Source: Candidatus Omnitrophota bacterium (GTDB lineage Bacteria; Omnitrophota; Gorgyraeia; Duberdicusellales; 4484-171). Taken from it: a stretch of 17,036 bases of DNA. Location of the stretch: the NCBI GenBank assembly GCA_021735655.1, contig JAIPGM010000014.1, positions 1 through 17,036 of the forward strand. The letters are read 5' to 3'. A program made the position numbers and the translations under genes. Numbering within the stretch: position 1 is the first letter of the stretch; each line of letters begins with the position of its first letter. The notes beneath the pieces were generated by a model. That model saw nothing but the letters and a program-made list of their open reading frames with translations. It was not told where the DNA came from and ran no database searches. Shown one piece after another: positions 1-17,036 of the stretch.

Positions 1-91
1 GTATTTGAAGATTTTAGTAATTTTAAATTACAATCTGATAAAAAAGTTTACCATTTATCTCCAGCCTAATGTAGGGCTTGCGATAAATGGC

Positions 92-117
92 TTGATATTT
101 TGAGAGTAGAATATACT
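92..117 (+). promoter_or_regulatory. Weak candidate sigma70 promoter upstream of the first operon. TTGATA (92-97), a short 14-nt spacer, then TATACT (112-117). An AT-rich near-palindrome TAATTTtAAATTA lies at 18-30.
   Basis: Hexamers read directly from the sequence. The spacer is shorter than optimal, so this is weak. An AGGAG Shine-Dalgarno lies at 131-135, before the ATG at 141. Confidence 0.2.
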
Positions 118-140
118 GGACAATTAACATAGGAGATTCT

Positions 141-752
141 ATGAAACATTTTTATTTTTTCGGGTTGGCGGTTTTGTTGTTTTTAGGTCTGGCTTGCGAT
201 CGAGGTCCACAAGAGGTAGTTATCGACAGTTTTGAGAGTGAAATAAATCCAAAAACTGTTGATTTTGGTGCAAGTGAGAATTCGTCTATAAGCGTTGATT
301 TAGCCAAGGATATAAAAGTTTGTGGTGAGCAGTCGTTAAAAATGACTTATGATTTAAGGCCTTCGGGGTATATGTGGGTTGCTCGAGGTTATGGCTTAGA
401 CGTTGAAGGGGCTGCTCTTTGGGAAGTTAAACCTAAAGATATCAAATGGAAGAGATATAAATCAATTAGTGTTGCGATATACGGACGGAACTCGGGAGGC
501 GTTTTAGCTTTTGACTTAAAGGATAGTGGTGGAGAAATGTGGCGGACTATTATTGATGATGATTTTGAGGGTTGGAAAGGTGTAGTTTGTCCTTTCAAGA
601 ATTTCTTTCCTCGTAAAGATTGGCAACCGGACACTGCCAAGAAGAATGATAAATTAGACTTTCCGATTATGAGTTTTCAATTCGAGCCACGGCTTCCTGG
701 CATCGGCGTCTATTATTTTGACTGCATAAAGGCTGTGAAAGTAGAAAAATAA
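141..752 (+). CDS. Putative secreted lipoprotein with a beta-sandwich (CBM / galactose-binding-like) appearance. Function unknown.
   Basis: Hydrophobic N-terminal signal followed by a Cys (…FLGLAC|DRG), which is lipobox-like. AGGAG RBS 6 nt upstream. The mature part is rich in Gly, aromatic and acidic residues (GYMWVARGYG, DDDFEGWKG), reminiscent of carbohydrate-binding or CIA30-type beta-sandwich domains. The stop TAA is immediately followed by the ATG of the next gene. Confidence 0.55.
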   Translation: MKHFYFFGLAVLLFLGLACDRGPQEVVIDSFESEINPKTVDFGASENSSISVDLAKDIKVCGEQSLKMTYDLRPSGYMWVARGYGLDVEGAALWEVKPKDIKWKRYKSISVAIYGRNSGGVLAFDLKDSGGEMWRTIIDDDFEGWKGVVCPFKNFFPRKDWQPDTAKKNDKLDFPIMSFQFEPRLPGIGVYYFDCIKAVKVEK

Positions 753-1778
753 ATGTCCGGTAAAGTCATTGATTTATCAAAGCTAAGCGAAGAGGAATTA
801 CTTAAGGTTAAAATTCGTGACCTGGGCCTCTCAATAGAAGGCACTTGGTTAGAAGATTGTATTCAGCAGTTATATGGAGAACTTGATTCTCAAGGAATCA
901 AGTTCAAACCACCTTGCTACTTAGCCGATGAATGGCTTGCTCCTGATGAAGAGCCAATAATTGGAATACCTTTTTTTTTAGCCCATCCGACGCTTATTAA
1001 GCTAGAAAGGAAAATGATGCTTGATGTCGAAGGTGGTACAAAAGCCTGGTGTATGAAGTTACTTCGTCATGAAACTGGCCATGCTTTAAATTATGCCTAC
1101 AAGCTTTATCGTCGGAAAAACTGGCAAAAGATATTTGGAAAATTTTCCAAGGAGTACGCTGATACTTATCGTTTTCGTCCTTATAGCAAGAATTTCGTTC
1201 GGCATTTGGAAAATCATTATGCTCAATATCATCCTGATGAGGATTTTTCGGAAACTTTTGCTGTCTGGCTTACGCCGGGGCTTAATTGGCAACAACAGTA
1301 TAAGGGTTGGCGGGTGATAAGTAAACTTCATTATGTCGATAAGATTATTAATGAAGTAAAAGATAAAGAGCCATTGGTGGAAAAGGGTAGTCGTTATTGG
1401 GAAGCTAGACGCATGCGCACGACTTTGAAGAGTTTTTATAAGAAAAAACGTCGTTCCTACGCAGAGGATTTTCCTGATTTTCACGATTCTAACTTAAGAC
1501 GAATATTTACCTTACCGGAACCGGAAAGCAAACCTTTGTCTTCGGCGGCAGCAATTTTAAAAAAGTACCGCAAAGAAATATTGAATAATGTAGCTCGTTG
1601 GACCGGAGAAAGAAAATATATTATTGGAGACCTTATTGATACTTTGATTCAGCGATCTAGGGAACTTAAATTGGTGGTTGTTGATCAGGAATCGCTGGCG
1701 GTACTTAAAATTTCTACCTATATTACGACTTTGGTGATGAACTATCTTTATACTGGAGGCTTTAGTAAGGAAAGATGA
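753..1778 (+). CDS. HExxH zincin-like putative metallopeptidase; family uncertain.
   Basis: Canonical HExxH (H-E-T-G-H, aa 106-110, nt 1068-1082) inside a helix-like context (LLRHETGHALNYAYKL). A possible third ligand (Glu/His) sits downstream (HYAQYHPDEDFSETFAVW). Start abuts the upstream stop (TAA-ATG), and the 3' end overlaps the next gene by 4 nt (ATGA). Confidence 0.6.
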   Translation: MSGKVIDLSKLSEEELLKVKIRDLGLSIEGTWLEDCIQQLYGELDSQGIKFKPPCYLADEWLAPDEEPIIGIPFFLAHPTLIKLERKMMLDVEGGTKAWCMKLLRHETGHALNYAYKLYRRKNWQKIFGKFSKEYADTYRFRPYSKNFVRHLENHYAQYHPDEDFSETFAVWLTPGLNWQQQYKGWRVISKLHYVDKIINEVKDKEPLVEKGSRYWEARRMRTTLKSFYKKKRRSYAEDFPDFHDSNLRRIFTLPEPESKPLSSAAAILKKYRKEILNNVARWTGERKYIIGDLIDTLIQRSRELKLVVVDQESLAVLKISTYITTLVMNYLYTGGFSKER

Positions 1779-2794
1779 AAAAACTAAGGGTTCTTTTGCT
1801 TTTTGATAGTCCAGTTTCGAGAATGCGCGGTTATGACTTTAAAGAGGAATTTAAGGATGTTGATTGGGATACCGAGCGCAGCACTTATGAAGTTTTAACT
1901 AAAGCGGGACACGAGGTAAGGATCTTAGGTCTTTATAATAATATTAATATACTTCTTGAAGAGATTGCCGAAATCAAACCGGACATAATTTTCAATATGG
2001 CTGAAGTGTTTAATCAAAAGTCATACCTAGATAAGAATGTTGCCGGAGTTCTTGAGATGCTAGATATTCCTTATACCGGGGCATCTTTAACTACTTTGGC
2101 TATTTGCGGCGATAAAGCTTTATGTAAAAAGATACTTAGTTTTCATAGAATTAAAGTTCCCCAGTTTTATACTTTCTATCGTCACCGGCGGATCTGGCTT
2201 CCTAAGAGACTTCGTTTACCATTAATTGTTAAACCGCTCAGTGAAGAAGCTTCTCGAGGGATTTCTCAAGCTTCAATCGTCGACAATGAGGAGGCGATGA
2301 TTGAGAGAGTTAAGTTTATTCATGATAGTATGAAGAATGACGCCATAGTTGAAGAATACATCGAAGGTCGGGAGCTTTATGTTAGTGCAATTGGTGATAA
2401 GCGAATTAAGATTTTACCTATGCGTGAGATGAAGTTTGGTAGCCTCGGTGAAGATGAGCCGCGGATCGCTACCTATAAGGCAAAGTGGGATTATAAATAT
2501 CGAAAAAAGTGGGAAATTAAAAATATGTTTGCCGGAAGGCTACCTAATGGCTCAACCGAGAAGATAAATGAAGTTTGCAAGCGTGCCTTTAGAGCTTTAA
2601 ATTTGGAGTGTTACGCCCGTTTTGACATTCGTTTAACAAACGATTCAAAAATATATATTCTTGAAGTTAATGCTAACCCTTCTTTAGACCCTGATGATGA
2701 ATTGGCCCAGTCAGCAGAAAAGGGTGGATTAACTTACGATAAGCTTATTCAAAAAATATTGATATTGGGGCTTAAGAGAGGTGGAAATAATTAA
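1775..2794 (+). CDS. ATP-grasp enzyme of the D-Ala-D-Ala ligase / RimK-like superfamily (amidoligase).
   Basis: Collinear with the Ddl fold throughout. RVLLLFD at the N-terminus; DIPYTGASLTTLAICGDKALCKKIL in the central domain; PLIVKPLSEEASRGIS (P-loop-like); EEYIEGRELYVSAIGD; an omega-loop-like KAKWDYKY; and the C-terminal Mg/ATP motif ARFDIRLTNDSKIYILEVNANPSL. It lacks the HG..GEDG block I expect in genuine Ddl. Confidence 0.85.
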   Translation: MKKLRVLLLFDSPVSRMRGYDFKEEFKDVDWDTERSTYEVLTKAGHEVRILGLYNNINILLEEIAEIKPDIIFNMAEVFNQKSYLDKNVAGVLEMLDIPYTGASLTTLAICGDKALCKKILSFHRIKVPQFYTFYRHRRIWLPKRLRLPLIVKPLSEEASRGISQASIVDNEEAMIERVKFIHDSMKNDAIVEEYIEGRELYVSAIGDKRIKILPMREMKFGSLGEDEPRIATYKAKWDYKYRKKWEIKNMFAGRLPNGSTEKINEVCKRAFRALNLECYARFDIRLTNDSKIYILEVNANPSLDPDDELAQSAEKGGLTYDKLIQKILILGLKRGGNN

Positions 2795-2796
2795 TT

Positions 2797-3054
2797 ATGG
2801 GTGCAGAGATTTTTGTAGCTCGTTGTTATGATGTTGGAGGAGTAGGTTTGGTAATCAATGGCTGGGTCCAGTCAGGTGAGATTAGGGAAGGATCAGTCGG
2901 TAGAACCTATAAAGGAAAAAGATTTACTTTGGTAAAGATTGAAAAAGAAGGTAAGCAAATTCCTAAGGCTGTTGAGAAAGATAAGATTAATCTTTTTGTT
3001 AAACATGTTAACCGCACTGAGGTGAAGCCGGGTGAGACTGTTTATTTTGAGTAG
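2797..3054 (+). CDS. Small (85 aa) stand-alone beta-barrel protein resembling EF-Tu domain 2 (translation-protein beta-barrel). It ends in -VYFE.
   Basis: The whole length matches EF-Tu D2: VGGVGLVINGWVQSGEIREGSVG aligns with GTVVTGRVERGIIKVGEEV, and the C-terminal KINLFVKHVNRTEVKPGETV aligns with [21 protein letters not shown]. Starts 2 nt after the ATP-grasp stop. Family placement is by eye, so confidence is moderate. Confidence 0.5.
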   Translation: MGAEIFVARCYDVGGVGLVINGWVQSGEIREGSVGRTYKGKRFTLVKIEKEGKQIPKAVEKDKINLFVKHVNRTEVKPGETVYFE

Positions 3055-3063
3055 GTTTTAGTC

Positions 3064-3633
3064 TTGCAGAGATCAACTAAGATGAAAGATTTACTTAATC
3101 CTAGTCAGAGAAGTTATCTTCTTTCTTTAGTTAGAGATACTATTCAACACTATCTAAGGACAAAAGAACCCTTAGAGCCCAAGACGGAAGACTCTTTGCT
3201 AAAAGATGTGCGCGGCGCTTTTGTTACTTTGCACCAAGGAGGTAGGCTAAGGGGTTGCATTGGTAGTATAGTTGCAACTAAGCCTCTTTATTTAGAGATA
3301 AGGGATATGGCTATTGCCGCAAGTACCCAAGATTCGAGATTTTCTCCGGTGAGTGAAGGAGAGCTGGCCGACATAAGAATAGAGATATCAGTTTTGTCGC
3401 CGTTTAAAAAAATAGTTAATTCTGACGAAATCATAGTTGGCAAGCATGGAGTTTTAGTGAAGCAGGGGTATAAAAGTGGAGTTTATCTACCACAAGTAGC
3501 TAAAGAGACCGGATGGGGTAAGGAAGAATTTATGAATAGTCTTTGTAGGGATAAGGCTGGCATCTCAGTTGATTCTTGGAAGAGGGGTGAGTGCGAAATC
3601 TATATTTTTAGTGCAGAAGTATTCGGAGAGTAG
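3064..3633 (+). CDS. AMMECR1-domain protein.
   Basis: Signature GAFVTLHQGGRLRGCIGS and downstream GKHGVLV / GVYLPQV blocks typical of AMMECR1. The annotated start is TTG at 3064; an in-frame ATG at 3082 (MKDLL…) is an alternative start. Confidence 0.8.
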   Translation: MQRSTKMKDLLNPSQRSYLLSLVRDTIQHYLRTKEPLEPKTEDSLLKDVRGAFVTLHQGGRLRGCIGSIVATKPLYLEIRDMAIAASTQDSRFSPVSEGELADIRIEISVLSPFKKIVNSDEIIVGKHGVLVKQGYKSGVYLPQVAKETGWGKEEFMNSLCRDKAGISVDSWKRGECEIYIFSAEVFGE

Positions 3634-3639
3634 TTAAAA

Positions 3640-4395
3640 ATGTCTAAAACTGTAAAAAATTTAATTATTGCCAATGTTTCAGTTTTTCTGCTTAGCTCTA
3701 TTTGGCAAGAGTTTCCGATCGGGCTGTTAGCTATGGTTCCGAGATTGGTCTTTTCAAAGTTAATGATTTGGCAGCTAGTTACCTATATGTTTGTGCATCT
3801 TGATTTGTGGCATTTGGTGATGAATATGCTGATGCTTTGGTTTTTTGGACCAGCAATCGAGGCAGCTTGGGGCCAGAAGCGATTTTTAATTTATTATTTT
3901 TTTACTGGTATCGGCGCAGCTTTATGCAGTGTTATTTTTTCCTTTAATTCACCGATAATCGGAGCCTCGGGTGCAATATTTGGAATATTGGTTGCTTACG
4001 CCATGCTTTATCCTGATAATATGATTTTGTTTTTTTTCTTTGTTCCGATGAAGATGAAACATGCTGTTTTTGTCTTAGCCGGAATAAATCTTTTGGGGGC
4101 AATTTCAGCTTCTGGCAGTGGCATTGCTTACATAGCTCATTTAGGCGGTGGTCTTTTTGGTTACCTTTACTTAAAAAACGAAACTTTACGCCATCGCCTT
4201 CTATCTTTAGACTTTGAGAAGATCAAATCATGGTTTAATAAGCCATCGGCAAAACCGACAAAGTCTACTAAACCCAATAAGCCTAAAACCTTTGATGAAC
4301 GGGTTGATGAGATTCTTGATAAGATATCCAAGAAAGGAATGGCTAGCCTTACTAAGGAGGAGATAGATATCCTTGATCGACGTAGTCGTTCTTAA
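3640..4395 (+). CDS. Rhomboid-family intramembrane serine protease with a C-terminal Pro/Lys-rich linker and a SHOCT-like tail.
   Basis: Multiple TM helices. Catalytic GxSG (GASGAIFGIL) and a His in AHLGGGLFG sit in the last TM helices. The tail KPSAKPTKSTKPNKPK followed by ERVDEILDKISKKGMASLTKEEIDILD fits the L-x-L-x3-G-x-[IL]-T-x-EE-[FI] SHOCT pattern. Confidence 0.85.
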   Translation: MSKTVKNLIIANVSVFLLSSIWQEFPIGLLAMVPRLVFSKLMIWQLVTYMFVHLDLWHLVMNMLMLWFFGPAIEAAWGQKRFLIYYFFTGIGAALCSVIFSFNSPIIGASGAIFGILVAYAMLYPDNMILFFFFVPMKMKHAVFVLAGINLLGAISASGSGIAYIAHLGGGLFGYLYLKNETLRHRLLSLDFEKIKSWFNKPSAKPTKSTKPNKPKTFDERVDEILDKISKKGMASLTKEEIDILDRRSRS

Positions 4396-4437
4396 CCCGC
4401 CATTTTGTTAGTTTTTCCTAGAAACTTACTGCTGAGC

Positions 4438-4466
4438 TTGACAAACCAAGATAAATAGGCTATACT
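4438..4466 (+). promoter_or_regulatory. Near-consensus sigma70 promoter: TTGACA (4438-4443), 17 nt spacer, TATACT (4461-4466).
   Basis: Read directly from the sequence. It lies in the only sizeable intergenic gap (4396-4512), about 47 nt upstream of the MarR ATG. An AGGAGG Shine-Dalgarno is at 4501-4506. Confidence 0.6.
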
Positions 4467-4473
4467 TTGGTTG

Positions 4474-4495
4474 ATTAATAGTTCACATTATTAAT
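4474..4495 (+). promoter_or_regulatory. Inverted repeat ATTAATA-N8-TATTAAT between the -10 element and the RBS; candidate MarR operator.
   Basis: Perfect 7-bp arms read from the sequence. Position relative to the -10/+1 region is typical of MarR autoregulatory sites. The AT-rich context makes chance palindromes more likely. Confidence 0.35.
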
Positions 4496-4512
4496 ATTTT
4501 AGGAGGTTAATT

Positions 4513-4974
4513 ATGCCTAAAGAAAGTCAAATAAAACAATTTTCTCAAGAGCTTACCGAAAGTATATCTTATATCCAGCGAATGGCCCGAATATTGCTAA
4601 GAGAGCGTTCCGATGCATTAATTCAGGGAAAAGTAACCATGCCCCAGTATTTGAGTCTCGAGTTGCTCAGTAATCATGGCGTTCTAAAGATGAAAGATAT
4701 TGCCAAAGCTTTAAATATTAGTCTTCCAGCGGCAACTGGCTTGGTGAATCGTTTGGTCAAAATGAAGTTAGTTGAGCGGGTTTATGATCAAGAAGACCGC
4801 CGGGTAATATTTGTTGAGCTCACCAGTGAAGGGAAAAAAACTACTGATGAAACTAAGTTAGCCCGGAGAAAAATTATTGAGGAGATGTTTGGCGGTATTA
4901 CCGATGAAGAAAGGGAAATTTATATTAGAATTATTCGCAAGGTAAAGAGTAATTTAAATGAAAAAGCTAAGTAA
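4513..4974 (+). CDS. MarR-family winged-helix transcriptional regulator.
   Basis: The wHTH core (TMPQYLSLELLSNHGVLKMKDIAKALNISLPAATGLVNRLVKMKLVERVYDQEDRRVIFVELTSEGKK) matches the MarR recognition helix and wing pattern. Size is 153 aa. The 3' end overlaps the next gene by 17 nt. Confidence 0.85.
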   Translation: MPKESQIKQFSQELTESISYIQRMARILLRERSDALIQGKVTMPQYLSLELLSNHGVLKMKDIAKALNISLPAATGLVNRLVKMKLVERVYDQEDRRVIFVELTSEGKKTTDETKLARRKIIEEMFGGITDEEREIYIRIIRKVKSNLNEKAK

Positions 4975-6439
4975 AAGTAAAAACATTAGTTTATTTTTAA
5001 TTCTAGTGGCAGGATTTTTTTTAACTTTTAAAGGTTTCACTGAAGACCTATTGCCTTTGGAATTGTCTTTAGAAGAGGTAACCGAGATTGCTTTGGAAAA
5101 TTCTTTGGATATTCAGATTGCTAAGTTTGATACCTATATTAGTAGAACCTCTAAAGATGAGGCTGAATCAATATTTGATACTATTTTTAGCGCTGAAGCT
5201 AGCTATAATCGAAATCGAAAAGAAACGGCCAGTTCTTTGGCCGGAACCGATACTCGAGAGACTATTTTTTCATTGGGTCTTGAGAAAAAACTACCTACCG
5301 GAACCACGCTTGCTCTAGATGCAATCAACACCAAGACTAAAACTAATAGTTCTTTTACTACCTTAAATCCTTATACTGAAGCTGGGCTTGAATTTTCAGT
5401 AACTCAGGAGTTAGGTAGGAATTTCTTTGGCTTAGCTGATCGGGCTAAGATTAAAATTACTAAAATCGATATTGAAAATTCTGAGTTTGTGTCTTTGGAT
5501 GATATTGAACAGTTTCTCTATGCTGTTCAGCGTTCCTATTGGAATTTAGCACTTCGCGAAGAAGAGCTTTTAATCGCTAAAGATATGCTGTCGGAAGCAG
5601 AAAAACTTTATGAAATTTACAAGGAAAAGAAAGAGCTAGGCTTGGTCGAGGAGAGTGAATTTTTAGCAATTGAGGCTTTACTTAAGGCCCGTCAAAGTAG
5701 CATTAATGTAGCTCAATTAGCTCGGGAAACGGCAAAGAATGATTTATTATTTTTAATTAACCGTGGTGATTTTCAGCAAAATCTTATTCCTCGGGATAGT
5801 CTAGATATCGAGGTTTTTGAGACAGATTTATATCAAGCTTTGAATCGGGCAGTTGATTCGCGTCGTGACTATAAGCGGATTAAAAATGAGTTAGAGAAAA
5901 ACAAGATTGATTTGGTGGTTAAAAAGAATGCCCTTTGGCCGCAAATAGATTTTGAGGCTACTTTTACTCGCAATAATATTGATACCGGACGCAGTCAGGC
6001 TTGGGGGGATATTTTTAGCGATGGCGGCGAAGATGTTTTTTTTAAAGTAAGTTTTGAGGTACCGCTTGAAAAAAGAGCGGCTCGTTCTCAAGTTCGCAAG
6101 GCCGACTTAGAAAAATCTCGGTTTTTACTCAAGTTTAAGCGAATTGAACGTCTATTGTTACAGGAAATCAACGATAAGGTTAATCAGGTAAATACGATGC
6201 AGAATCAAGTCAAACTATTTAAGCAGACGGTTAAAATTCATCAGCGCAAACTTAAGAGTCAAATTGAGCGTTTAAGTTTGGGGCGCTCTGATTCAGATAC
6301 GCTTATTCGTTACGAGGAAGACTTATTAAAAGCACGTTTATCTTTAGCGGAGTATTTATTTAATTATCGTACTAGTTTGATCGAGCTGGATTTAAAACAG
6401 AACATTTTACTAGATAAGTATTGGCAGGAGCCACTTTAG
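4958..6439 (+). CDS. TolC-family outer-membrane efflux protein (outer membrane factor, OMF).
   Basis: N-terminal signal peptide, then the classic OMF opening (LSLEEVTEIALENSLDIQIAKFD…). Two-fold internal repeat of beta-strand and coiled-coil segments. 493 aa. Confidence 0.85.
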   Translation: MKKLSKSKNISLFLILVAGFFLTFKGFTEDLLPLELSLEEVTEIALENSLDIQIAKFDTYISRTSKDEAESIFDTIFSAEASYNRNRKETASSLAGTDTRETIFSLGLEKKLPTGTTLALDAINTKTKTNSSFTTLNPYTEAGLEFSVTQELGRNFFGLADRAKIKITKIDIENSEFVSLDDIEQFLYAVQRSYWNLALREEELLIAKDMLSEAEKLYEIYKEKKELGLVEESEFLAIEALLKARQSSINVAQLARETAKNDLLFLINRGDFQQNLIPRDSLDIEVFETDLYQALNRAVDSRRDYKRIKNELEKNKIDLVVKKNALWPQIDFEATFTRNNIDTGRSQAWGDIFSDGGEDVFFKVSFEVPLEKRAARSQVRKADLEKSRFLLKFKRIERLLLQEINDKVNQVNTMQNQVKLFKQTVKIHQRKLKSQIERLSLGRSDSDTLIRYEEDLLKARLSLAEYLFNYRTSLIELDLKQNILLDKYWQEPL

Positions 6440-6451
6440 GAGAGCAAAGCG

Positions 6452-9400
6452 ATGAGTATTGTTGAATTTTCAGTAAAGCGTTCACTTTTAGTAAACCTTA
6501 TTTCAGTTTTTATCTTAGTCGCTGGGTTTTTGTCGGTTTTTGTGTTTAAGATTAGAAGAGAGGCTTTTCCTGAAGTTTCTTATGACATTGTCATTGTTAG
6601 TACGGTTTATCCGGGGGCAGCCCCCGAGGAGGTAGAAAAGCTAGTTACCATACCGATTGAAAAGGAGTTAAAGGGAGTAGACGGAATAGAGAAGATGAAG
6701 TCTACCTCCCTAGAGAACTCTTCAAACATTTCAATCGAGATAAGCCAAGATGTAAAAAACAAGCGCAAGGTTATTACCGATATTCAAAAGGCGGTTGATC
6801 GAGTAAGAGATTTACCGGCCGGAGTAGAGGATGACCCAGTAGTAAGTGAGGTTACTTCTGGAGAGTTTCCGGTAGTTCAGGTAGCCTTAAGTGGTGATAT
6901 GCCTGAGAAAGAGCTTCAAGAGTATGCTGAAAATCTAGAAGATATCCTAGAAGATATTCCTGGTGTTTCAAAGATTTCTCGGATTGGTTATCGAGATCGA
7001 GAAGTCTGGGTTGAGGTTGATCCACAAAAGCTAAGCTCTTTTCATTTAAGCCTTGAAGAGGTAATGGAAGCTCTGGCTAGGAAAAACCGAAGTATTCCCG
7101 GAGGAAAAATCAGAGGAGTTCAAGAGTTCAGCATTCGGACAACCGGTGAATTTTATACTAAAGAAGAAATTGAAGATGTGGTTATCCGGGCTAATGAGAC
7201 TGGGAATTGGCTAAGAGTAAAAGATGTGGCTGAAGTAAAGTTTTCTTTTGAGGATGAAAACACAATTAATAAAAGTTTTGGTACTCGGTCGATAGACCTT
7301 ACTGTAATCAAGCGGGCTAGCGGTGACGCGATTGAAATAGTTGAAAAAGTCAAGCTTAAGACTGAAAAATTTTTAACTCAGACAAATGATTCTCGTTTGG
7401 AAACTTCTTACATTAATGACATATCTTTTTATATTAAACGTCGGCTAGGTACGCTTAAAAATAACGGAATAGTCGGTATTGTTTTAGTTTGTTTTGTTTT
7501 GATGATATTTTTGCAATTTCGGATTGCTTTGATAACTGCTATTGGACTTCCGATTGCTTTTTGTGCAACTTTGGCGGTAATGAGCTTTGTTGGTTTGAGT
7601 ATAAACCTAGTTACCATGTTTGGTTTGATTGTGGTTTTGGGTATGTTAGTTGATGATGGCATTATTGTTTCTGAGAATTGTTCACGCTATCTAGAAGAGG
7701 GCCATTCACCTTATCAGGCGGCTATTTTAGGAACCCAGGAAGTAATAAAACCAGTTACTACTACAATAATTACGACCATTGCTGCTTTTAGTCCGCTTCT
7801 TTTTATGGGGGGGATGATGGGGAAGTTTATCTGGGGGATACCTCTGGTAGTTATTATTGCTCTTTGTGCTTCTTTATTTGAAGCCTTAGTTATTTTGCCT
7901 TCGCATTTTGCCGATTTTATTCGTCGGGATAAAAATTTTAAATCGCGTAAAGAACTCCCTTGGTTTAAGAAATTGGTCGTTGTCTATACTCGATTAGTGA
8001 CTAAGGCTTTAAATCGGCGTTGGTGGGTATTGGGAGGATTATTTTTAGTTTTAATTTTAACTGTTGGTTTAGTTATGCACATGCCAAAAATTCTTTTTGC
8101 TTCTGAAGAAGGAATAGAAGAGTTTACTGTCCGGGCCGAAGCCCCAGTCGGAACTAATCTTTATTCCACTGATAAGTTAATTAAACCGATAGAGGAAGAA
8201 GTCGCTAAGATGCCTAAAAATCAGGTCGAAGCCTACACTACTCAAGTTGGTTCAATCGGTGATAGTTGGCATTTTGATCCTTATGGTAAGAGCGGTAGCC
8301 ATGTAGTTCAGGTGACAGTTCACTTAACGCCTTATAAGCAGCGCAAAAGAAAGGTTAGTCAGATCATCGAAGACCTACGAACTAAAATTGGTGATGTTGA
8401 GGGGTTTGATCGGGTTTACTTTGAGAAACCTCAGGCTGGACCTCCGGTCGGTGCACCGGTTGCGGTTGAAATTCGCGGCGAGAGCTTTGAAGTTTTAAAC
8501 AAAATCGCTAATCAGATAAATGAATTTTTAAAAACCATTCCCGGTATTTCCGATATAGTATCTGATTATGAGGTTGGCAGAGGAGAAATTCGGGTTATTG
8601 TTGATGAAGAAAAAGCTGCCCGGACCTATTTGTCGGTCGGTGAAGTGGCTTCAAGTATTCGCAATGCTTTTCGCGGCGGGGTGGCTACTTCAATTAAGCC
8701 GGTTAAGGCTGAAGAAGAGATTGATGTTTTAGTGAGATTTCCCGATGACTATCGTACTAAGCGAGAATCCTTTGAAAAAATATTAGTTCCTAATAAGTTT
8801 GGTAATTTAATCCCTTTAGCTAAGATAGCTAGATTTGAGGATGGTGTATCGGTAGCCAGGGTTCAGCATCTCGACGGAAAAAGAGTGATATCGGTCAAAG
8901 CTAACGTTGATAACCAGAACATTACTTCTAATGAAGCTAATAAGCTGATTAAGGATAAATTTAAGGATGTTTCAATTAATTTTCCCGGATATAGTATACA
9001 GTTTGGCGGAGAGCAAAGGGAAAATGTCCGTTCAATGAAAGATTTCGCTAATGCTTTTATTCTGGCCTTGTTTTTAATTTTTTTAATTTTAGCCGCTAAC
9101 TTTAATTCATTGGTTCAGCCGTTAATCGTTATGATGGCGATTCCTTTTGGTTTTATCGGAGTCATCTGGGCTTTTTTCTTCCATGGTTTACCGATCGGTT
9201 TTTTTATGTTTATGGGTGCAGTAGGTTTAACTGGAATAGTAGTTAATGATTCTATAGTTTTGGTTGAGTTTGTTAATAATTTAAGAAGAAAAGGGGTCGA
9301 TCGAAGACATTCATTAATTCAAGCCGGTCAGTTACGCTTGCGGCCGGTTTTACTTACTACGATTACTACTGCTCTTGGTTTGACCCCGACAGCCTATGGT

Positions 9401-9574
9401 ATTTGGGGCGGAGACCCATTTTTAAAGCCAATGGCTTTGACTATTGTTTGGGGTATAGTTTGTGCAACCGTTCTAACTTTGGTTGTCTTGCCTTGTATTT
9501 ATGCTATTATAGATGATATTACTTTAAAGCTGGCTGGCCATACGACAGTTAAGAAAAGCAATATCACTATATGA
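6452..9574 (+). CDS. RND-superfamily efflux permease (AcrB-like, HAE1-type architecture, 12 TM).
   Basis: 1040 aa. TM1 followed by a large periplasmic domain (VSTVYPGAAPEEVEKLVTIPIEKEL). The TM4 proton-relay pair is present (MLVDDGIIVSEN; DD at nt 7652-7657). There is a second large periplasmic loop, and an Arg in TM11 (LRLRPVLLTT). No adaptor gene is present either side. Confidence 0.93.
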   Translation: MSIVEFSVKRSLLVNLISVFILVAGFLSVFVFKIRREAFPEVSYDIVIVSTVYPGAAPEEVEKLVTIPIEKELKGVDGIEKMKSTSLENSSNISIEISQDVKNKRKVITDIQKAVDRVRDLPAGVEDDPVVSEVTSGEFPVVQVALSGDMPEKELQEYAENLEDILEDIPGVSKISRIGYRDREVWVEVDPQKLSSFHLSLEEVMEALARKNRSIPGGKIRGVQEFSIRTTGEFYTKEEIEDVVIRANETGNWLRVKDVAEVKFSFEDENTINKSFGTRSIDLTVIKRASGDAIEIVEKVKLKTEKFLTQTNDSRLETSYINDISFYIKRRLGTLKNNGIVGIVLVCFVLMIFLQFRIALITAIGLPIAFCATLAVMSFVGLSINLVTMFGLIVVLGMLVDDGIIVSENCSRYLEEGHSPYQAAILGTQEVIKPVTTTIITTIAAFSPLLFMGGMMGKFIWGIPLVVIIALCASLFEALVILPSHFADFIRRDKNFKSRKELPWFKKLVVVYTRLVTKALNRRWWVLGGLFLVLILTVGLVMHMPKILFASEEGIEEFTVRAEAPVGTNLYSTDKLIKPIEEEVAKMPKNQVEAYTTQVGSIGDSWHFDPYGKSGSHVVQVTVHLTPYKQRKRKVSQIIEDLRTKIGDVEGFDRVYFEKPQAGPPVGAPVAVEIRGESFEVLNKIANQINEFLKTIPGISDIVSDYEVGRGEIRVIVDEEKAARTYLSVGEVASSIRNAFRGGVATSIKPVKAEEEIDVLVRFPDDYRTKRESFEKILVPNKFGNLIPLAKIARFEDGVSVARVQHLDGKRVISVKANVDNQNITSNEANKLIKDKFKDVSINFPGYSIQFGGEQRENVRSMKDFANAFILALFLIFLILAANFNSLVQPLIVMMAIPFGFIGVIWAFFFHGLPIGFFMFMGAVGLTGIVVNDSIVLVEFVNNLRRKGVDRRHSLIQAGQLRLRPVLLTTITTALGLTPTAYGIWGGDPFLKPMALTIVWGIVCATVLTLVVLPCIYAIIDDITLKLAGHTTVKKSNITI

Positions 9575-11463
9575 TTTTTTTAAATAACCTTTCCAAAAGT
9601 TACGGTTCGAGGATTCTTTTTGAGAATTTTTCCTTAACCATTGATCGCGGTGAACGAATCGGCTTGGTTGGTCCCAACGGAGCTGGCAAATCTACACTTT
9701 TCAATATTATTCTTAAGCAAAACGAAAGCTCTTCGGGAACTATTCAGATAAATAAAGGTGTTCGTATTGGTTATCTTGCTCAAGAGGTAACCTTTAATTC
9801 AGAAGCTACAGTTTTGTCAGAGCTAACTGCTGGTGATGAGTCGATTAAGAAGCTCAAAAAAGAAAAGGATGCTTTAGAGAAAGAGAACAAAGCTGCCGGA
9901 GCTCGCTACGGGGCAGTACTCCACGATTTAGAGTTTTTTGGTTATTTTGATTTAGAGCATCGAGCTAAAAAAATATTAAGCGGCTTAGGCTTTGCGAATT
10001 CAGATTTTAATCGGCCGGTTAATGAAATGAGCGGTGGTTTTAAGATGCGAGTTTTATTGGCTAAGCTGTTGCTGTATCCTTATGATATTTTACTTTTGGA
10101 TGAACCTACCAACTTTCTAGATTTAGAAGCAGCTATTTGGTTTAAAGATTATTTATTAAAATTTAAGGGAACTTTTGTGATGATTTCTCACGATCGGGAT
10201 TTTCTTACCGAGGTAACCAGCGACACTTTAGTTTTAGAAAACGGAGCAATCACTAAGATCAAGGGAAATTATGATGATTATGAAAAGATGTGTAATGAGC
10301 AGCGAGAGCGCCTGCTTAAGCAGTTTAAGGAGCAGGATAAAAAGTGTAAACAATTGAAAGTTTTTATTAATCGGTTTCATGCTCAGCCGAATAAGGCTTC
10401 CCAGGTTAGATCTAAGAAACGGATGTTAGAGAAGATGGATATCATTAACGTACCGTTAGATCGCAAGGAAAGTATCCGCAAGTTTAATTTTCCAAAGGCC
10501 ACACGCAGTGGCTACCGGGCGATAGAGCTTAAAAGTATTTCTAAAGCTTACGGTGATATCTCGGTGTATCAAGATTTTGATTTTGAACTAACTCGAGGAG
10601 AAAAGTCAGTTTTTATCGGCCATAATGGAGCCGGCAAATCGACCCTCTTAAAGATTTTGGCCGGAGTTATTGATATTGATTCCGGATCGCGGATTCTTGG
10701 CACCAATATTGATATTGGTTATTTTTCACAAACCCGTCTTGATGTTCTAACTCCCGATAATACTGTTTTTGAAGAAGCCTATTCAGCTTCCGGAGGCAGG
10801 CTGACTAATGATGAGATTAGAACGGTTTTGGCCGCTTTTTTATTTACCGGAGACGATGTTGAGAAGAAGGTTAGCATTCTTTCCGGAGGAGAGAAGAGTC
10901 GTTTGATTTTAGCAAAACTTTTAATTAACCCTCCTAACTTTTTGCTTTTGGATGAGCCGACAACTCATCTTGATGTTGATGCAGTTGAGGCATTAATCAG
11001 AGCTTTAAAAGAATACGACGGAACACTTGTTTTTATAAGTCATGATATCCATTTTGTTCGCTCGGTAGCCAATATGGTTTTTGAAATCAATAAGGGGCGA
11101 GTAAGGAAATTTCCCGGCAGCTTTGATTACTATTGGCAAACTGCCAGGCATAAAGATGTTGTTGAGCTTAAACGTAAAAAAATAAAATCGAAATCGTCCC
11201 CAGTAAAAGAAATGTCAGAAAAAGATAAGGAAAAGAAACAAAAAAAAGAAAACGAGAAAATTTCCAAGAAGATAAAAGCCCTTAGGAAAGAAAAAGAAGA
11301 CTTAGAGCTGGAATATAATGTGAAGTGGCGGGTTGTTTCTAATCCCCGCAGCTATCATCGTAAAGAGGTAGCTTCTGAATATAGCCAACGCTTGAAAGAA
11401 CTGAAGTGCCAAATAGCGAAAAATGATCAAGAGATAAAGGACCTCAAAAAGCTGTTTAAATAG
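9571..11463 (+). CDS. ABC-F family ATPase: two ABC domains, an inter-domain linker, and a Lys/Glu-rich C-terminal coiled-coil (Uup/EttA-like architecture).
   Basis: Two Walker A motifs (GPNGAGKST, GHNGAGKST) and two signature motifs (MSGGFKMRV, LSGGEKSRL). Walker B motifs LLLDEPTNFLD and LLLDEPTTHLD. No transmembrane domain. The C-terminal KRKKIKSKS…KEKKQKKENEKISKKIKALRKEKEDLE tail is present. The ATG overlaps the RND stop (ATGA). Confidence 0.9.
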   Translation: MIFLNNLSKSYGSRILFENFSLTIDRGERIGLVGPNGAGKSTLFNIILKQNESSSGTIQINKGVRIGYLAQEVTFNSEATVLSELTAGDESIKKLKKEKDALEKENKAAGARYGAVLHDLEFFGYFDLEHRAKKILSGLGFANSDFNRPVNEMSGGFKMRVLLAKLLLYPYDILLLDEPTNFLDLEAAIWFKDYLLKFKGTFVMISHDRDFLTEVTSDTLVLENGAITKIKGNYDDYEKMCNEQRERLLKQFKEQDKKCKQLKVFINRFHAQPNKASQVRSKKRMLEKMDIINVPLDRKESIRKFNFPKATRSGYRAIELKSISKAYGDISVYQDFDFELTRGEKSVFIGHNGAGKSTLLKILAGVIDIDSGSRILGTNIDIGYFSQTRLDVLTPDNTVFEEAYSASGGRLTNDEIRTVLAAFLFTGDDVEKKVSILSGGEKSRLILAKLLINPPNFLLLDEPTTHLDVDAVEALIRALKEYDGTLVFISHDIHFVRSVANMVFEINKGRVRKFPGSFDYYWQTARHKDVVELKRKKIKSKSSPVKEMSEKDKEKKQKKENEKISKKIKALRKEKEDLELEYNVKWRVVSNPRSYHRKEVASEYSQRLKELKCQIAKNDQEIKDLKKLFK

Positions 11464-11487
11464 GCCATTTTTTGCTATAATCATTAG

Positions 11488-12270
11488 ATGTTTGTAATTA
11501 AGATAAAGCCTGAAAGAAAAATTGATATTATTGTTCGGATCGGCCTGTATATAAGCCTAGGTTTACTTATTGCTTCTTTTGTTCAAAAAGGCGTACTTCC
11601 CAAAAAGAAAGCAATACATCCTGATTTGTATCAAGAGCCGATTCAGCGTGAGACCTACACTCCTTCTTTTGAAGCAAAAGCTGAGGGTTCAATTTACGAT
11701 ATAAATCCGAGTCACCACTATAAACTTAATGGTTTGGTTGTTTCTCAACACGACTCAACCGCTTGGTGGGATTATTATCATAAAAAATGGGGTGATTCAT
11801 TAAATCTAAAAGATGTTTGTGTTATTTGGGGCGATAACCTTGAGAATGAAACCTATCGAAGAATGCGTTTTAGAAATGGTAATTGGACTTGCTATGTGTC
11901 AGTAAATCATAAAACAGCTGATCAAGATTGGGCACAGTTTAATATGGCGGCTTTATCCAATAATCACCTTTTGTCGGATAAAGCTGAAATCAACCAGGCT
12001 TTACGCAAGGTGCATGTTGGTGATCAGATTTATCTCAAAGGATACTTGGCATCCTATCATCGTCAAGGAAGCCATTTTTCTCGTGACTCAAGTATCTCGC
12101 GAACCGATGAAGGTGATGGCGCTTGTGAAACAATTTACCTTACTGATTTTAAGGTTCTTAAAAGCGCTAATTTTTTTTGGTGGTCAGTTTATGGAGTATC
12201 TAAATATTTAGTCTTGATATTATTCATTTTTTTAGTTTTCCTTCGAATTCAAGCCCCTTTGAGCAGGTAA
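11488..12270 (+). CDS. Hypothetical membrane protein of unknown function, with a TM helix at each end.
   Basis: Predicted TM helices at aa ~15-35 and ~225-250, flanking a ~190-aa hydrophilic domain rich in Trp, His and Tyr (WWDYYHKKWGDS, NGNWTCYVSVNH). I see no recognisable family motif. The start has a weak RBS. Confidence 0.5.
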   Translation: MFVIKIKPERKIDIIVRIGLYISLGLLIASFVQKGVLPKKKAIHPDLYQEPIQRETYTPSFEAKAEGSIYDINPSHHYKLNGLVVSQHDSTAWWDYYHKKWGDSLNLKDVCVIWGDNLENETYRRMRFRNGNWTCYVSVNHKTADQDWAQFNMAALSNNHLLSDKAEINQALRKVHVGDQIYLKGYLASYHRQGSHFSRDSSISRTDEGDGACETIYLTDFKVLKSANFFWWSVYGVSKYLVLILFIFLVFLRIQAPLSR

Positions 12271-12279
12271 AAAATTATC

Positions 12280-13401
12280 ATGATTACCAAACCATTATTA
12301 TTAAAAGTTTATGAAGCAGCCAGCATGCAGCGCTGGAATGATCAGATTAAGGCGGTGGAGCTTACTGAGCTCGATAAGCAAGCGCATAAGATGATCATTG
12401 CCTATTGCTTAGGCAAGTGTCAGGAGAAGTACAAGACGGCCGGTTTTAACTGGATCGAGATTATCGAAGCCGGAATATTTGAATATTTACAGCGAATAGT
12501 TCTTACTGATTTAAAGCCACCCTTATTTCATCGGATAAAGGAAGATCAGGATAAATACCGGCGTCTTAATGAATGGGTTTATGAAAAAATAGAAAAGGTT
12601 ATTCGGCCGCTTGGTGAAGGATTTTGCCAGCGCTTTAATTCCTATCTTCTAGATCCTAAGCGGAATGTGAACCGAAGGATTATAAGTGCTGCTCACTTTT
12701 ATGCAACTAAATGGGAGTTTGATATAATTGAACGGGCCAATCCTCAAGGTTATTTGATTGAAGAGATCAGGGAAGATATCCGTACCAAACAGGAACGTTA
12801 TCACGATTTAGAAAGTATGCAGGATTTGTTAAATTCACCCGGTCTTAAGAGTTTTGTGAATATTTGCGGCCAGCTTCGTTTTCAGATTCGCTGGAGTCAT
12901 CTTCCGAGAGTTCCTAAGACCTCGGTATTGGGCCATATGCTGATTGTCGCTATGATTGCCTATCTTATGTCTGAAAATTCCGGTGCCGATTCTGAGCGTT
13001 GCTTGAACAATTATTTAACCGGGCTGTTTCATGATTTACCTGAGGTTTTAACTCGGGATGTAATTAATCCGGTAAAAAGATCGGTTGAAGGTTTGGATGA
13101 CTTAATTAAAGAGTATGAGCGCCAGGAAATGGAAAGAAAAATATATAAGTTAATTCCTACCGATTGGCATTCTCAGATGAGGAATTTTACCGAAGAAGAG
13201 TTTACTAACACTGCTTCCCGCGATGGAGAGCTTATTAAGGCAGTTGATGAGTTGGCTGCCTTTCTGGAGGCCTATTTATCTTTGGCTAATGGCATTCAGA
13301 GCCAAGATTTTACAACAGCTAAGAAATCTCTGCCGCGTAAGTATAAGTCTAAAATAATTGCCGGAGTTAATTTCGCTAAGATTTATAAAGAGTTTTGTTG
13401 A
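12280..13401 (+). CDS. HD-domain phosphohydrolase of the YfbR-like (5'-deoxynucleotidase, HD_3) type, carrying a duplicated, degenerate N-terminal HD-like domain.
   Basis: C-terminal half: IRWSHLPRVPKTSVLGHMLIVAMIAY (His219) and LTGLFHDLPEVLTRDVINPVK (H251-D252, nt 13030-13035), then KAVDELAAFLEAY. This matches YfbR's RW…SEHSLQVAMVAHA / YHDASEVLTGDLPTPVK / KQADALCAYLK. The N-terminal half repeats the same pattern (QRWNDQ…, RIVLTDLKPPL) but has E-Y where the H-D dyad should be (nt 12481-12486). Confidence 0.75.
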   Translation: MITKPLLLKVYEAASMQRWNDQIKAVELTELDKQAHKMIIAYCLGKCQEKYKTAGFNWIEIIEAGIFEYLQRIVLTDLKPPLFHRIKEDQDKYRRLNEWVYEKIEKVIRPLGEGFCQRFNSYLLDPKRNVNRRIISAAHFYATKWEFDIIERANPQGYLIEEIREDIRTKQERYHDLESMQDLLNSPGLKSFVNICGQLRFQIRWSHLPRVPKTSVLGHMLIVAMIAYLMSENSGADSERCLNNYLTGLFHDLPEVLTRDVINPVKRSVEGLDDLIKEYERQEMERKIYKLIPTDWHSQMRNFTEEEFTNTASRDGELIKAVDELAAFLEAYLSLANGIQSQDFTTAKKSLPRKYKSKIIAGVNFAKIYKEFC

Positions 13402-13426
13402 ATAATTAGTTAAGTTTAGGAGTCAA

Positions 13427-14278
13427 ATGAAAATTGTAGATATTCTTAAAACTAGGGAGTCAGGCGTGGCTTTTGAATTTTTTCCGCCTAGCACTCAGAA
13501 GAGTGAAGAGAGATTGATTGAAACAGTTAGGATTCTAAAAGACTATCAGCCGCTTTACGTTTCAATGACCCATGGTGCCGGCGGCACTGATCAAACTAAG
13601 ACTCAAAAAGCAGTCGACATACTTCTTTCAGAAGGTGGCCTAGCGGTTATGCCGCATTTAACTGGCATTTCGGCTTCAAAGAGTCAGGCTGAGGAGCTGC
13701 TTAAGGCTTATCAACTAAAGGGTCTTGAGAATATCATGGCTTTGCGGGGTGATCCACCAAAAGAGGAAATTGGAGCTAAGGTTGGAGATTTTCGTTATGC
13801 GATAGATTTGGTTAAATTTATAAAGGAACGTAGCGATCTTTGTATAGGGGTTGCCGTTTACCCTGAGGGACATATTGAAACTGAGTCAGTTGAACAAGAT
13901 TTAGACTACACAAAGCAGAAGATAGATTCGGGAGCAGATTTTGCGGTCACTCAAATGTTTTTTGATAATTCTTATTATTATTCTTTTTTAGATCGGATGA
14001 AAAAAAGAGCGATTAATGCTCCGGTTTTACCGGGCATCCTGCCTTTAACTAATATTGCTAAAGTTAAAGAGTTTGCATCTATCTGCCGAACTACAATCCC
14101 GAGGCAGATTGAAGAAAAAATGGAACAGTTTAAAGATAAACCAAAAGAGATGGAGAAAGTAGGAATTGATTTTACGATTAAGCAGTGCCGGGATCTAAAA
14201 AGTCAGGGAGTAAAGTACATACATTTCTTTACTCTTAATCGGCCTAAAGTAATGAGCGCTATTTTAGAGTCCATCTAG
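13427..14278 (+). CDS. metF: 5,10-methylenetetrahydrofolate reductase (MetF).
   Basis: FEFFPP near the N-terminus; HLTGIS…; ALRGDPP; FAVTQMFFD; and the overall ~280-aa TIM-barrel MetF layout. AGGAG RBS upstream. Confidence 0.9.
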   Translation: MKIVDILKTRESGVAFEFFPPSTQKSEERLIETVRILKDYQPLYVSMTHGAGGTDQTKTQKAVDILLSEGGLAVMPHLTGISASKSQAEELLKAYQLKGLENIMALRGDPPKEEIGAKVGDFRYAIDLVKFIKERSDLCIGVAVYPEGHIETESVEQDLDYTKQKIDSGADFAVTQMFFDNSYYYSFLDRMKKRAINAPVLPGILPLTNIAKVKEFASICRTTIPRQIEEKMEQFKDKPKEMEKVGIDFTIKQCRDLKSQGVKYIHFFTLNRPKVMSAILESI

Positions 14279-14284
14279 AAGACG

Positions 14285-14313
14285 TTGACTAGTTCCAATA
14301 GAAATAGTATGAT
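14285..14313 (+). promoter_or_regulatory. Sigma70-type promoter: TTGACT (14285-14290), 17 nt spacer, TATGAT (14308-14313).
   Basis: Read directly from the intergenic gap 14279-14336. The next gene follows after a G-rich Shine-Dalgarno (GGGGGGA). Confidence 0.55.
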
Positions 14314-14336
14314 TTAGTTTAAATCAGGGGGGACAG

Positions 14337-14921
14337 ATGAAGTTATCTATAATTTTAATTATTTCGGCCATGGTTTTATTTCCCGATAGTTTGATGGCTC
14401 AAGTTACCGAGAGCAATATTTATCCGGTTTGCCAGTCAAAGGCTATAGATAGTAAGTCAGAGCTTAAGGTAGGAGATCAAGCTCCGGATTTTACTCTTTT
14501 GGCGGTTGGTGGAGGAGAAGTTAGCTTGCATGATTATTTAGGCACTAAGTATGTAGTGATTAGTTTTGTTCCGGCGGCCTGGACTCCGGTTTGCTCGGTT
14601 CAGTGGCCGGAATACAATCAATTCGAGTCGGTGTTTAGAGATCATGATGCAGTTTTATTGGGGATAAGCGCCGATAATATTCCTAGTCTTTATGCTTGGA
14701 TAAACGATATGGGAGGCATTTGGTTTGAGGCACTTTCAGATTTTTGGCCACATGGAGCAGTTGCTGAAAAGTATGGAGTTTTACGTTCTGATGGTACAGC
14801 TGAAAGATCTTTGTTTATTATCGACAAACAAGGAATAATTCGTTATATCGATATTCATGATATTAATCAGAAGCCGGCCTTTGCCGATTTAGTTGTTGAG
14901 TTGCAGAAGCTGGAAGATTAA
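14337..14921 (+). CDS. Secreted peroxiredoxin / redoxin of the AhpC-TSA family.
   Basis: N-terminal signal peptide (MKLSIILIISAMVLFPDSLMA|QV). Motif FVPAAWTPVCSVQWPE with the peroxidatic Cys in the T-P-V-C context. About 170 aa mature length. Confidence 0.8.
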   Translation: MKLSIILIISAMVLFPDSLMAQVTESNIYPVCQSKAIDSKSELKVGDQAPDFTLLAVGGGEVSLHDYLGTKYVVISFVPAAWTPVCSVQWPEYNQFESVFRDHDAVLLGISADNIPSLYAWINDMGGIWFEALSDFWPHGAVAEKYGVLRSDGTAERSLFIIDKQGIIRYIDIHDINQKPAFADLVVELQKLED

Positions 14922-14932
14922 GGAGGGTTTTT

Positions 14933-15286: not shown

Positions 15287-15323
15287 TCAATTTCAAGTTA
15301 GTATTGTTAGGAGGGTTAAAAAG

Positions 15324-16274: not shown

Positions 16275-16295
16275 CTGCAGCATCTAACTTAGAGT

Positions 16296-16931: not shown

Positions 16932-17036
16932 TAGTTGGTGAAAACTCTGGATTATCAGTAGAATAAATAGATAGTCACAGAGTAGATAGGTTATAGGTTG
17001 TATTGTTTTTCTGGGGCTTAATTGACCCCGTAAAGG

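Follow-up and report, generated by a model that had tools for sequence, protein, structure and literature searches.

A Ddl-fold ATP-grasp protein, very probably not a D-alanine-D-alanine ligase, encoded with an HExxH zincin in Omnitrophota and other bacteria

The locus

The subject of this report is a pair of overlapping genes near the start of a 17,036-nt stretch of DNA from a Candidatus Omnitrophota bacterium (GenBank assembly GCA_021735655.1, contig JAIPGM010000014.1, positions 1 to 17,036, forward strand), which was analysed as a whole and is called the window here. The second gene (1775-2794) encodes an ATP-grasp protein with the fold of Ddl (D-alanine-D-alanine ligase), and the first (753-1778) encodes an HExxH protein that is predicted to be a zincin-fold metallohydrolase. 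Beyond the fold and the ATP chemistry, the ATP-grasp protein fails five of the six testable features that define Ddl and should not be filed as such; judged from its sequence, the open reading frame (ORF) very probably does not encode the cell-wall D-Ala-D-Ala ligase. The original prediction for this DNA had proposed a Ddl-derived ATP-grasp enzyme with other substrates, and this core proposal stands, with Ddl model scores below their cut-offs, not a single Ddl signature match and the D-Ala contacts replaced. It had overlooked the upstream HExxH partner, which is the most informative feature of the locus.

The two genes and their features are located as follows.

753-1778, + strand: partner gene, encoding a predicted cytoplasmic, Peptidase_Mx-like HExxH zincin-fold metallohydrolase of 341 aa with a C-terminal helical domain
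1068-1082, + strand: the partner's HETGH motif for zinc binding and catalysis (H106, E107, H110)
1236-1259, + strand: DEDFSETF block of the partner (D162-F169), with E163 or E167 as candidate third zinc ligand
1775-1778, + strand: ATGA overlap, the partner's stop on the start of the ATP-grasp gene, reading ...AAGGAAAGATGAAA...
1775-2794, + strand: predicted Ddl-fold ATP-grasp carboxylate-amine ligase of 339 aa, ATG to TAA
1994-2038, + strand: NMAEVFNQKSYLDKN (residues 74-88), in place of the HG..GEDG block of Ddl, placed by alignment, with low model confidence at 79-82
2477-2524, + strand: omega-loop KAKWDYKYRKKWEIKN (residues 235-250), with seven K/R and two D/E, placed by alignment
2618-2632, + strand: RFDIR (residues 282-286), in which R282 and D284 correspond to R255 and D257 of E. 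coli DdlB
2663-2680, + strand: EVNANP (residues 297-302), in which E297 and N299 correspond to the DdlB Mg2+ ligands E270 and N272
2696-2701, + strand: acidic pair D308-E309, at the DdlB S281-L282 positions (the site of the carboxylate of the second D-Ala, D-Ala2)

Fold and similarity to Ddl

The claim that the protein follows the Ddl fold from end to end is borne out by structure prediction. The AlphaFold2 model, built with 53 homologues as input, has a predicted local distance difference test score (pLDDT) of 86.3 and a predicted template modelling score (pTM) of 0.86, and Foldseek finds nothing but D-Ala-D-Ala and D-Ala-D-Lac ligases among its best 50 PDB matches, with alignments that cover the full length (TM score 0.69-0.76 on the query, identity 19-25%). 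The only segments with a pLDDT below 50 are residues 79-82 and 159-162, which line up, respectively, with the replaced HG..GEDG block and the loop that surrounds DdlB S150. Residues 221-240, which include the start of the omega-loop, have a mean pLDDT of 56-60.

At the level of sequence models the resemblance is partial. Pfam finds Dala_Dala_lig_C (PF07478, 4e-25), ATP-grasp_3 (1.5e-11) and ATP-grasp_4 (8e-7) in the ORF and no match to Dala_Dala_lig_N (PF01820); RimK stays at 18.2 bits, below its cut-off of 21, and TTL matches a 35-residue stretch alone, barely above its cut-off. The best NCBIfam Ddl model, PRK01372, gives 134.4 bits against a cut-off of 243 and TIGR01205 gives 117.2 bits against 245.65, and for all 25 listed Ddl and Van models the ORF falls far under the curated cut-offs, reaching about half. 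Because of these scores the NCBI pipeline PGAP names the protein generically as 'ATP-grasp domain-containing protein'. The ORF product matches an NCBI protein of a Candidatus Omnitrophica metagenome-assembled genome at 100% identity. When E. coli DdlB was run by tblastn against the window (E limit 10), the ORF went unreported, so plain BLAST can miss the Ddl relationship for this member; in the same search its relatives in other loci were matched at 1e-20 to 1e-25. By phmmer, the window protein matches the DdlB structure 1iov at 2e-13.

Residues kept and residues replaced

For residue mapping, E. coli DdlB (identical to 1iov over all 306 residues) and the window protein were aligned to a profile of 103 diverse family members, and conservation was counted in 53 Omnitrophota sequences and in the 103 diverse representatives. 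The roles given below to DdlB residues are those of the structural and mutagenesis literature on DdlB.

All nine DdlB residues that serve ATP, Mg2+ and the transition state are retained: K97, K144, E180, E187, K215, R255, D257, E270 and N272 correspond to K114, K153, E193, E200, K237, R282, D284, E297 and N299. They are near-invariant among the relatives, with K114 and N299 present in all 103 representatives, K153, K237, R282 and D284 in 102, E193 in 101 and E297 in 99. The profile alignment at these nine positions agrees with the earlier statement that the ATP/Mg2+ motifs are kept. A catalytically dead or purely regulatory relic of Ddl is scarcely credible when the ATP, Mg2+ and transition-state residues are essentially invariant in the 103 representatives and conservation across phyla is strong; nothing specific speaks for such a relic, and its sole argument is that no substrate is known.

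The residues that contact D-Ala are replaced by others that are conserved and peculiar to the family. In DdlB, D-Ala is bound by the E15-S150-Y216 triad and by E68, with S281 and L282 holding the D-Ala2 carboxylate. The window protein has L85 in place of E68, A159 in place of S150, W238 in place of Y216, D308 in place of S281 and E309 in place of L282; by the alignments to B. anthracis Ddl, it also has N80 in place of H63. Both members of the acidic pair are invariant in the 53 Omnitrophota sequences, and among the diverse representatives position 308 is D or E in 88 of the 103 and position 309 in 91.

The N-terminal block HG..GEDG, expected in genuine Ddl, had been said to be replaced, and it is: HGKYGEDG of the B. 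anthracis enzyme aligns to NQKSYLDK in the window protein, within the segment NMAEVFNQKSYLDKN, and PF01820 finds no match. Furthermore, the Ddl signatures PS00843 (HG..GEDG) and PS00844 (C-terminal), applied as patterns with DdlB as positive control, match none of the 53 Omnitrophota sequences and none of the 103 diverse members; DdlB matches both.

The omega-loop had likewise been singled out as highly basic, a description that its composition (seven K/R to two D/E) justifies. In it, K237-W238 stands for K215-Y216 of DdlB and is followed by a basic and aromatic insertion. The loop is conserved among the Omnitrophota homologues, and across the 103 representatives K237 is kept in 102, W238 in 86, Y242 in 75 and R243 in 74. 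A further family-specific residue is R286, an extra arginine two residues past the Mg2+ aspartate at the position of DdlB M259, present in 99 of 103. Other hallmarks of the family are N301 (102 of 103), E77 (88), an acidic residue at position 86 (87), E34 (84) and F79 (84).

A large family beside Ddl and VanA

A search of 1.84 billion representative proteins returns 817 clusters at E<1e-30, of which the top 150 score 187-420 bits against the single query at 29-69% identity. The best solved Ddl reaches 88 bits when the query is the single sequence and 158 bits when it is the family profile. Searched against the PDB, the profile matches Ddl over its full length at 100-158 bits and VanA at 133 bits, the L-amino-acid ligase BL00235 (3vot) at 59 bits over positions 102-213 only, and CphA1 weakly at 30-33 bits; no chain of RimK, LysX or PGM1 is among the PDB profile matches at E<=1e-5. 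By these sequence comparisons the ATP-grasp family is large and distinct from Ddl/VanA. Identity of the ATP-grasp protein between Omnitrophota genomes is 63-84%, and the changes in the Ddl motifs recur in Verrucomicrobiota, Gammaproteobacteria, delta-proteobacterial/Binatia lineages, Turneriella and others. As the same changes occur in other phyla, the GEDG difference is typical of the family and not of the Omnitrophota lineage. The original prediction had named, as what would refute a paralogue, that this were the genome's only ddl homologue and the GEDG difference typical of functional Ddl in its clade; the changes run family-wide across several phyla.

This distribution bears directly on the possibility that the gene is the genuine, perhaps only, D-Ala-D-Ala ligase of its genome in a diverged, lineage-specific form. 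JGI/IMG labels many members of the family 'D-alanine-D-alanine ligase', the nearest solved structures are all Ddl, and the window holds no other ddl gene. A 2026 preprint reports K01921, together with alanine racemase, in 176 of 176 complete Omnitrophota genomes, although it does not state which protein was scored and its supplement has no K01921 table. A true Ddl is nevertheless highly improbable here: motif changes shared by several phyla are no quirk of a lineage, the D-Ala2 carboxylate positions are acidic and the equivalents of E68, S150 and Y216 are lost, the scores are about half the curated Ddl cut-offs and the PGAP name is only generic, and the protein is always coupled, and once fused, to a zincin hydrolase, as Ddl is not known to be. 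Given scores at about half of those cut-offs for the ATP-grasp protein, it seems more likely that a strict K01921 call picks up a canonical Ddl encoded separately.

The earlier observation that the gene lies outside a division and cell-wall (dcw) context holds for the whole window, which contains no mur or fts gene. When E. coli DdlB was searched by tblastn against 934 kb of related loci, only the ATP-grasp family matched.

The upstream zincin-fold protein and its coupling to the predicted ligase

Loci were collected by a scan of one genome per GTDB species, which gave at least 598 matching stretches, and the best 80 were chosen by ATP-grasp similarity alone. An HExxH protein lies directly upstream of the ATP-grasp gene on the same strand in 86 of 86 loci, which span about nine lineages: Omnitrophota, Auribacterota, Verrucomicrobiota, Gammaproteobacteria (Nevskiaceae/Solimonas, Steroidobacteraceae and Rudaea), delta-proteobacterial/Binatia lineages, Methylomirabilota, FCPU426, Turneriella and Planctomycetota. 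In one delta-proteobacterial/Binatia lineage the pair is found at 48% identity. Since a zincin gene is upstream in every genome examined, the ATP-grasp protein is probably half of an uncharacterised two-enzyme system.

The coupling is close. For 69 of 82 loci the intergenic gap is estimated at -32 to +25 bp, and the 4-bp ATGA overlap of the window, which implies translational coupling and has a GGA-rich stretch just 5' of it, recurs in a complete 1.82-Mb Omnitrophota genome and in a metagenome-assembled genome of the PVC group (loci L001 and L002). There is also a natural fusion, P0239, a four-member cluster of 568-572 aa proteins found on three contigs, in which the partner's peptidase domain forms the N-terminus (41% identity over 232 aa, E 2e-55) and is followed by the ATP-grasp; the C-terminal helical domain of the partner is missing from it. 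All-against-all clustering of the ORFs in 83 loci shows nothing in common beyond the pair, the next cluster being generic two-component regulators in 16 loci.

In fold the partner is a zincin, nearest to lethal factor (LF), PPEP and M32 peptidases, and a Foldseek search of it against the PDB gives no match with E <1. All 45 Omnitrophota homologues have the HETGH motif unchanged, and 79 of 82 partner ORFs of related loci contain HExxH. D162, E163, D164, F165, E167, T168 and F169 are likewise invariant in the Omnitrophota homologues (DEDFxETF), and the wider pattern HExxH...[DE][DE][FWY]xExF occurs in 72 of the 82 ORFs. By analogy with gluzincin architecture, E163 or E167 may be the third zinc ligand. 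The Pfam family Peptidase_Mx (PF15887) scores 25.3 bits on the window partner, against a cut-off of 27; relatives in loci L005 and L006 and almost all of the 120 listed partner homologues carry PF15887 matches. Identity of the partner among Omnitrophota homologues is 61-77%.

Distant ATP-grasp relatives, at 32-37% identity, occur without an HExxH partner. One of them, P0160 (37% identity; locus L087, 2177-6014), starts 2 bp past a gene for a biopterin-dependent aromatic amino-acid hydroxylase and has a RimB-like gene (PF05618) about 2.4 kb upstream. Another protein of the same non-Ddl clade, P0219 (682 aa; locus L089, 322-3509), consists of two tandem Ddl-like ATP-grasp modules and is followed, with a 4-bp overlap, by a Peptidase_S58 gene for a DmpA-type aminopeptidase, making a second ligase-peptidase couple in that clade. 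In the plasmid collection there are only distant rhizobial ATP-grasp proteins, 28-31% identical.

Comparison with known ligase-peptidase systems

Ddl and VanA share with the window protein the three-domain ATP-grasp fold over its full length and identical ATP, Mg2+ and acyl-phosphate residues, and they are its best sequence matches among solved structures. The window protein differs from them in its low identity (19-25%), in lacking HG..GEDG and either signature, in the replaced D-Ala contacts, and in being obligately paired with a zincin outside any dcw/mur context.

Several known systems combine a ligase with a hydrolase. VanA and VanX are a Ddl-family ligase and a zinc dipeptidase that act on a related dipeptide and are encoded in one operon, and the present pair is similar in that a Ddl-fold ligase is encoded with a zinc-dependent peptidase. 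However, VanX belongs to M15 (the Hedgehog/DD-peptidase fold), whereas the partner here is an HExxH zincin nearest LF and PPEP. No vanH-, vanR- or vanS-like gene is conserved near the pair, which looks like housekeeping genes conserved across phyla and not like a resistance cassette. Similarly, glutathionylspermidine synthetase/amidase (Gss/GspSA) carries an N-terminal amide hydrolase and a C-terminal ATP-dependent carboxylate-amine ligase that break and make the same amide to a cationic amine. Its two domains come in the order seen in the fusion P0239, which is an analogy: the amidase of Gss is of the CHAP cysteine hydrolase type, the synthetase falls in another ATP-grasp-like branch, and no sequence relationship of the pair to Gss was detected. 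Pairs of a ligase and a peptidase for dipeptide metabolites are a further known analogue.

In CphA1, a metallopeptidase-like N domain makes primers for the ATP-grasp G domain, so that a peptidase-like site, N-terminal in the protein, and an ATP-grasp cooperate on one peptide product (PMC9262961). An oligomer or polymer synthetase of this manner, with a peptidase that makes primers or sets length and activities that cooperate instead of opposing each other, would match the domain order of P0239, in which the peptidase is N-terminal to the ATP-grasp; the acidic pair and the extra arginine would suit a substrate with cationic and anionic groups, and relatives with tandem double ATP-grasps exist. 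Such a synthetase is improbable all the same, as the pair has no second ligase domain corresponding to the Mur-ligase-like M domain of CphA1, the N domain of CphA1 folds differently and its HxxEH motif is inverted, the family profile matches CphA1 so weakly, and no storage-polymer genes lie nearby.

RimK (with RimB), LysX and TTL-type enzymes are ATP-grasp amidoligases that often have a dedicated peptidase neighbour, and the RimB-like gene near P0160 is a likeness at a distance. A protein- or peptide-tailing system, in which the ATP-grasp adds one or more amino acids to a side chain or the C-terminus of a specific protein in the manner of these enzymes and the zincin removes them as a reversible post-translational mark, would fit the phylum-wide conservation of both proteins (63-84% and 61-77%), which could reflect a macromolecular partner. 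The nearest folds of the zincin are endopeptidases or carboxypeptidases acting on proteins or peptides, the omega-loop is enlarged, conserved and basic, and no biosynthetic or transport genes are conserved with the pair. Tailing is unlikely, however, for a protein of Ddl-type fold with a full-size N-terminal domain, the part that in Ddl closes the small-molecule pocket and that sets the window protein apart from RimK, LysX and TTL. Besides the absence of RimK, LysX or TTL-type similarity at E<=1e-5 and the marginal Pfam matches to RimK and TTL, no candidate substrate protein is conserved nearby, since the one small neighbour, an 85-aa ORF, has 14 homologues and a variable C-terminal residue.

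The partner also borders Peptidase_Mx and Peptidase_Mx1 (PF15887/PF15890, including PDB 4l7a), families described as 'putative zinc-binding metallo-peptidase' and functionally undefined, from which it differs by its extra C-terminal helical domain. In the literature searched there was no paper on Peptidase_Mx/PF15887 and no description of the zincin/ATP-grasp pair, although a survey of ATP-grasp amidoligases and their peptidase neighbours may mention it (Iyer et al., 2009).

Neighbouring genes

Besides the pair, the 17-kb window encodes CBM_11, AMMECR1, rhomboid, MarR, outer-membrane efflux (OEP), AcrB and ABC-F proteins, an HD-domain protein, MTHFR, a peroxiredoxin, an HMGL-like protein and KDPG aldolase. 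Every family-assigned ORF is on the + strand, the GC skew is +0.11 to +0.31 throughout, and the genes are tightly packed, several of them abutting or overlapping. The following neighbours were noted.

141-752, + strand: CBM_11-like protein, its N-terminus resembling that of a lipoprotein (…LGLAC), immediately upstream of the pair
2797-3054, + strand: 85-aa ORF, 2 nt past the ATP-grasp stop, ending in ...YFE
3064-3633, + strand: homologue of AMMECR1 / AmmeMemoRadiSam system protein A (TIGR04335, 176 bits)
4513-9574, + strand: MarR regulator, TolC-like OEP and AcrB-type resistance-nodulation-division (RND) transporter in a row
11488-12270, + strand: 260-aa ORF with hydrophobic segments at its termini, no Pfam or NCBIfam match
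14933-15286, + strand: 117-aa Cys-rich ORF with four CxxC pairs, no Pfam or NCBIfam match

The CBM_11-like gene ends at 752 and the ATG of the partner follows at 753; a CBM_11-like gene holds that place in two of 85 other loci (L001, 6348-6962; L007, 4368-4958). The 85-aa ORF has weak similarity to domain II of EF-1alpha/SelB and to the tRNA-binding protein Pbp11. Among 5.8 billion proteins it has 14 homologues, the named ones from Omnitrophica, several of which appear to share contigs with ATP-grasp homologues; the C-terminus of this small family is YF[DEG], its last residue being D, E, G or missing. The ORF was weighed as a LysW- or S6-like carrier or substrate and rejected, as it is not beside the pair in 84 of 85 other loci, has so few homologues and varies in its last residue. 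Its appearance is that of a beta-barrel standing on its own and confined to a single Omnitrophota subclade.

No Memo-like or radical-SAM partner of the AMMECR1 homologue is present in the window, and no membrane-fusion (HlyD/MFP) gene lies between or beside the OEP and AcrB genes, which is unusual for a tripartite efflux operon. A defence or phage origin is rejected: PADLOC returned no match and PHROG no meaningful one.

Proposed function

Any interpretation has to accommodate what is observed: a Ddl fold that keeps its catalytic residues but has lost the determinants of Ddl, encoded in an obligate gene pair and, in one cluster, fused to its partner. With moderate confidence, the sequences favour a Ddl-derived carboxylate-amine ligase that uses other substrates and forms an obligate pair with an upstream metallohydrolase acting on the same class of amide bond. 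As to the nature of the substrates and the functional relation of the two activities, we infer the following. The machinery of Ddl would be retained, with ATP held between the central and C-terminal domains, Mg2+ on D284, E297 and N299, and K237 and R282 stabilising the acyl-phosphate intermediate; both substrate pockets would be rebuilt. The ligase would phosphorylate a carboxylate substrate and hand the acyl group to an amine other than D-Ala. With D308 and E309 aligned to the DdlB residues at the D-Ala2 carboxylate site, this amine is probably cationic or lacks a nearby carboxylate, and a basic amino acid, a polyamine-type amine or a peptide N-terminus may be considered as candidates. For the acyl substrate, an anionic character is suggested by the extra R286 and the basic omega-loop. 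Hydrolysis or trimming of amide bonds of this class is the partner's most likely task, and the two proteins would then work as a synthetase/hydrolase couple on a small peptide-like metabolite, an oligomer or the peptide tail of a protein.

Three points weigh against this interpretation. The alignment of the N-terminal domain to Ddl is unreliable, so that E25 and E34 are both candidates for the equivalent of E15, the D-Ala1-binding glutamate of DdlB. In addition, the neighbourhood of the pair holds no substrate gene. Lastly, instead of reversing the ligation, the partner could act at an earlier step, for instance to expose a terminus or to make primers.

A wider proposal is more tentative, namely that the ligase and the zincin form a self-contained, multi-phylum system that installs, and removes or processes, a specific amide or isopeptide linkage between a cationic amine and an anionic acyl donor. 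Such a system might produce a peptide-like metabolite of a new kind or a short polymer, or it might put a reversible tail of amino acids on a housekeeping protein.

Implications

The practical value of these findings lies in a warning against labelling the family as Ddl. With the Ddl labels that JGI/IMG attaches to many of its members, claims on peptidoglycan precursors that rely on the presence of K01921 could in principle count the wrong protein. An annotation filter can be built on the absence of HG..GEDG, KW in place of KY, the extra arginine two residues past the Mg2+ aspartate, and [DE][DE] in place of S-L.

A module that is conserved in about nine lineages, and once fused, bears the mark of a defined biochemical activity, for which no description was found. 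Ligase-peptidase couples are a known theme, controlling elsewhere osmolytes, storage polymers, thiol-polyamine conjugates and protein tails. The strong conservation of both proteins in Omnitrophota would fit a core physiological role in these bacteria, which are ultra-small and depend on hosts. Once the substrate is identified, another pathway of this type would be added, and a trait relevant to the host-dependent lifestyle of the Omnitrophota might come to light.

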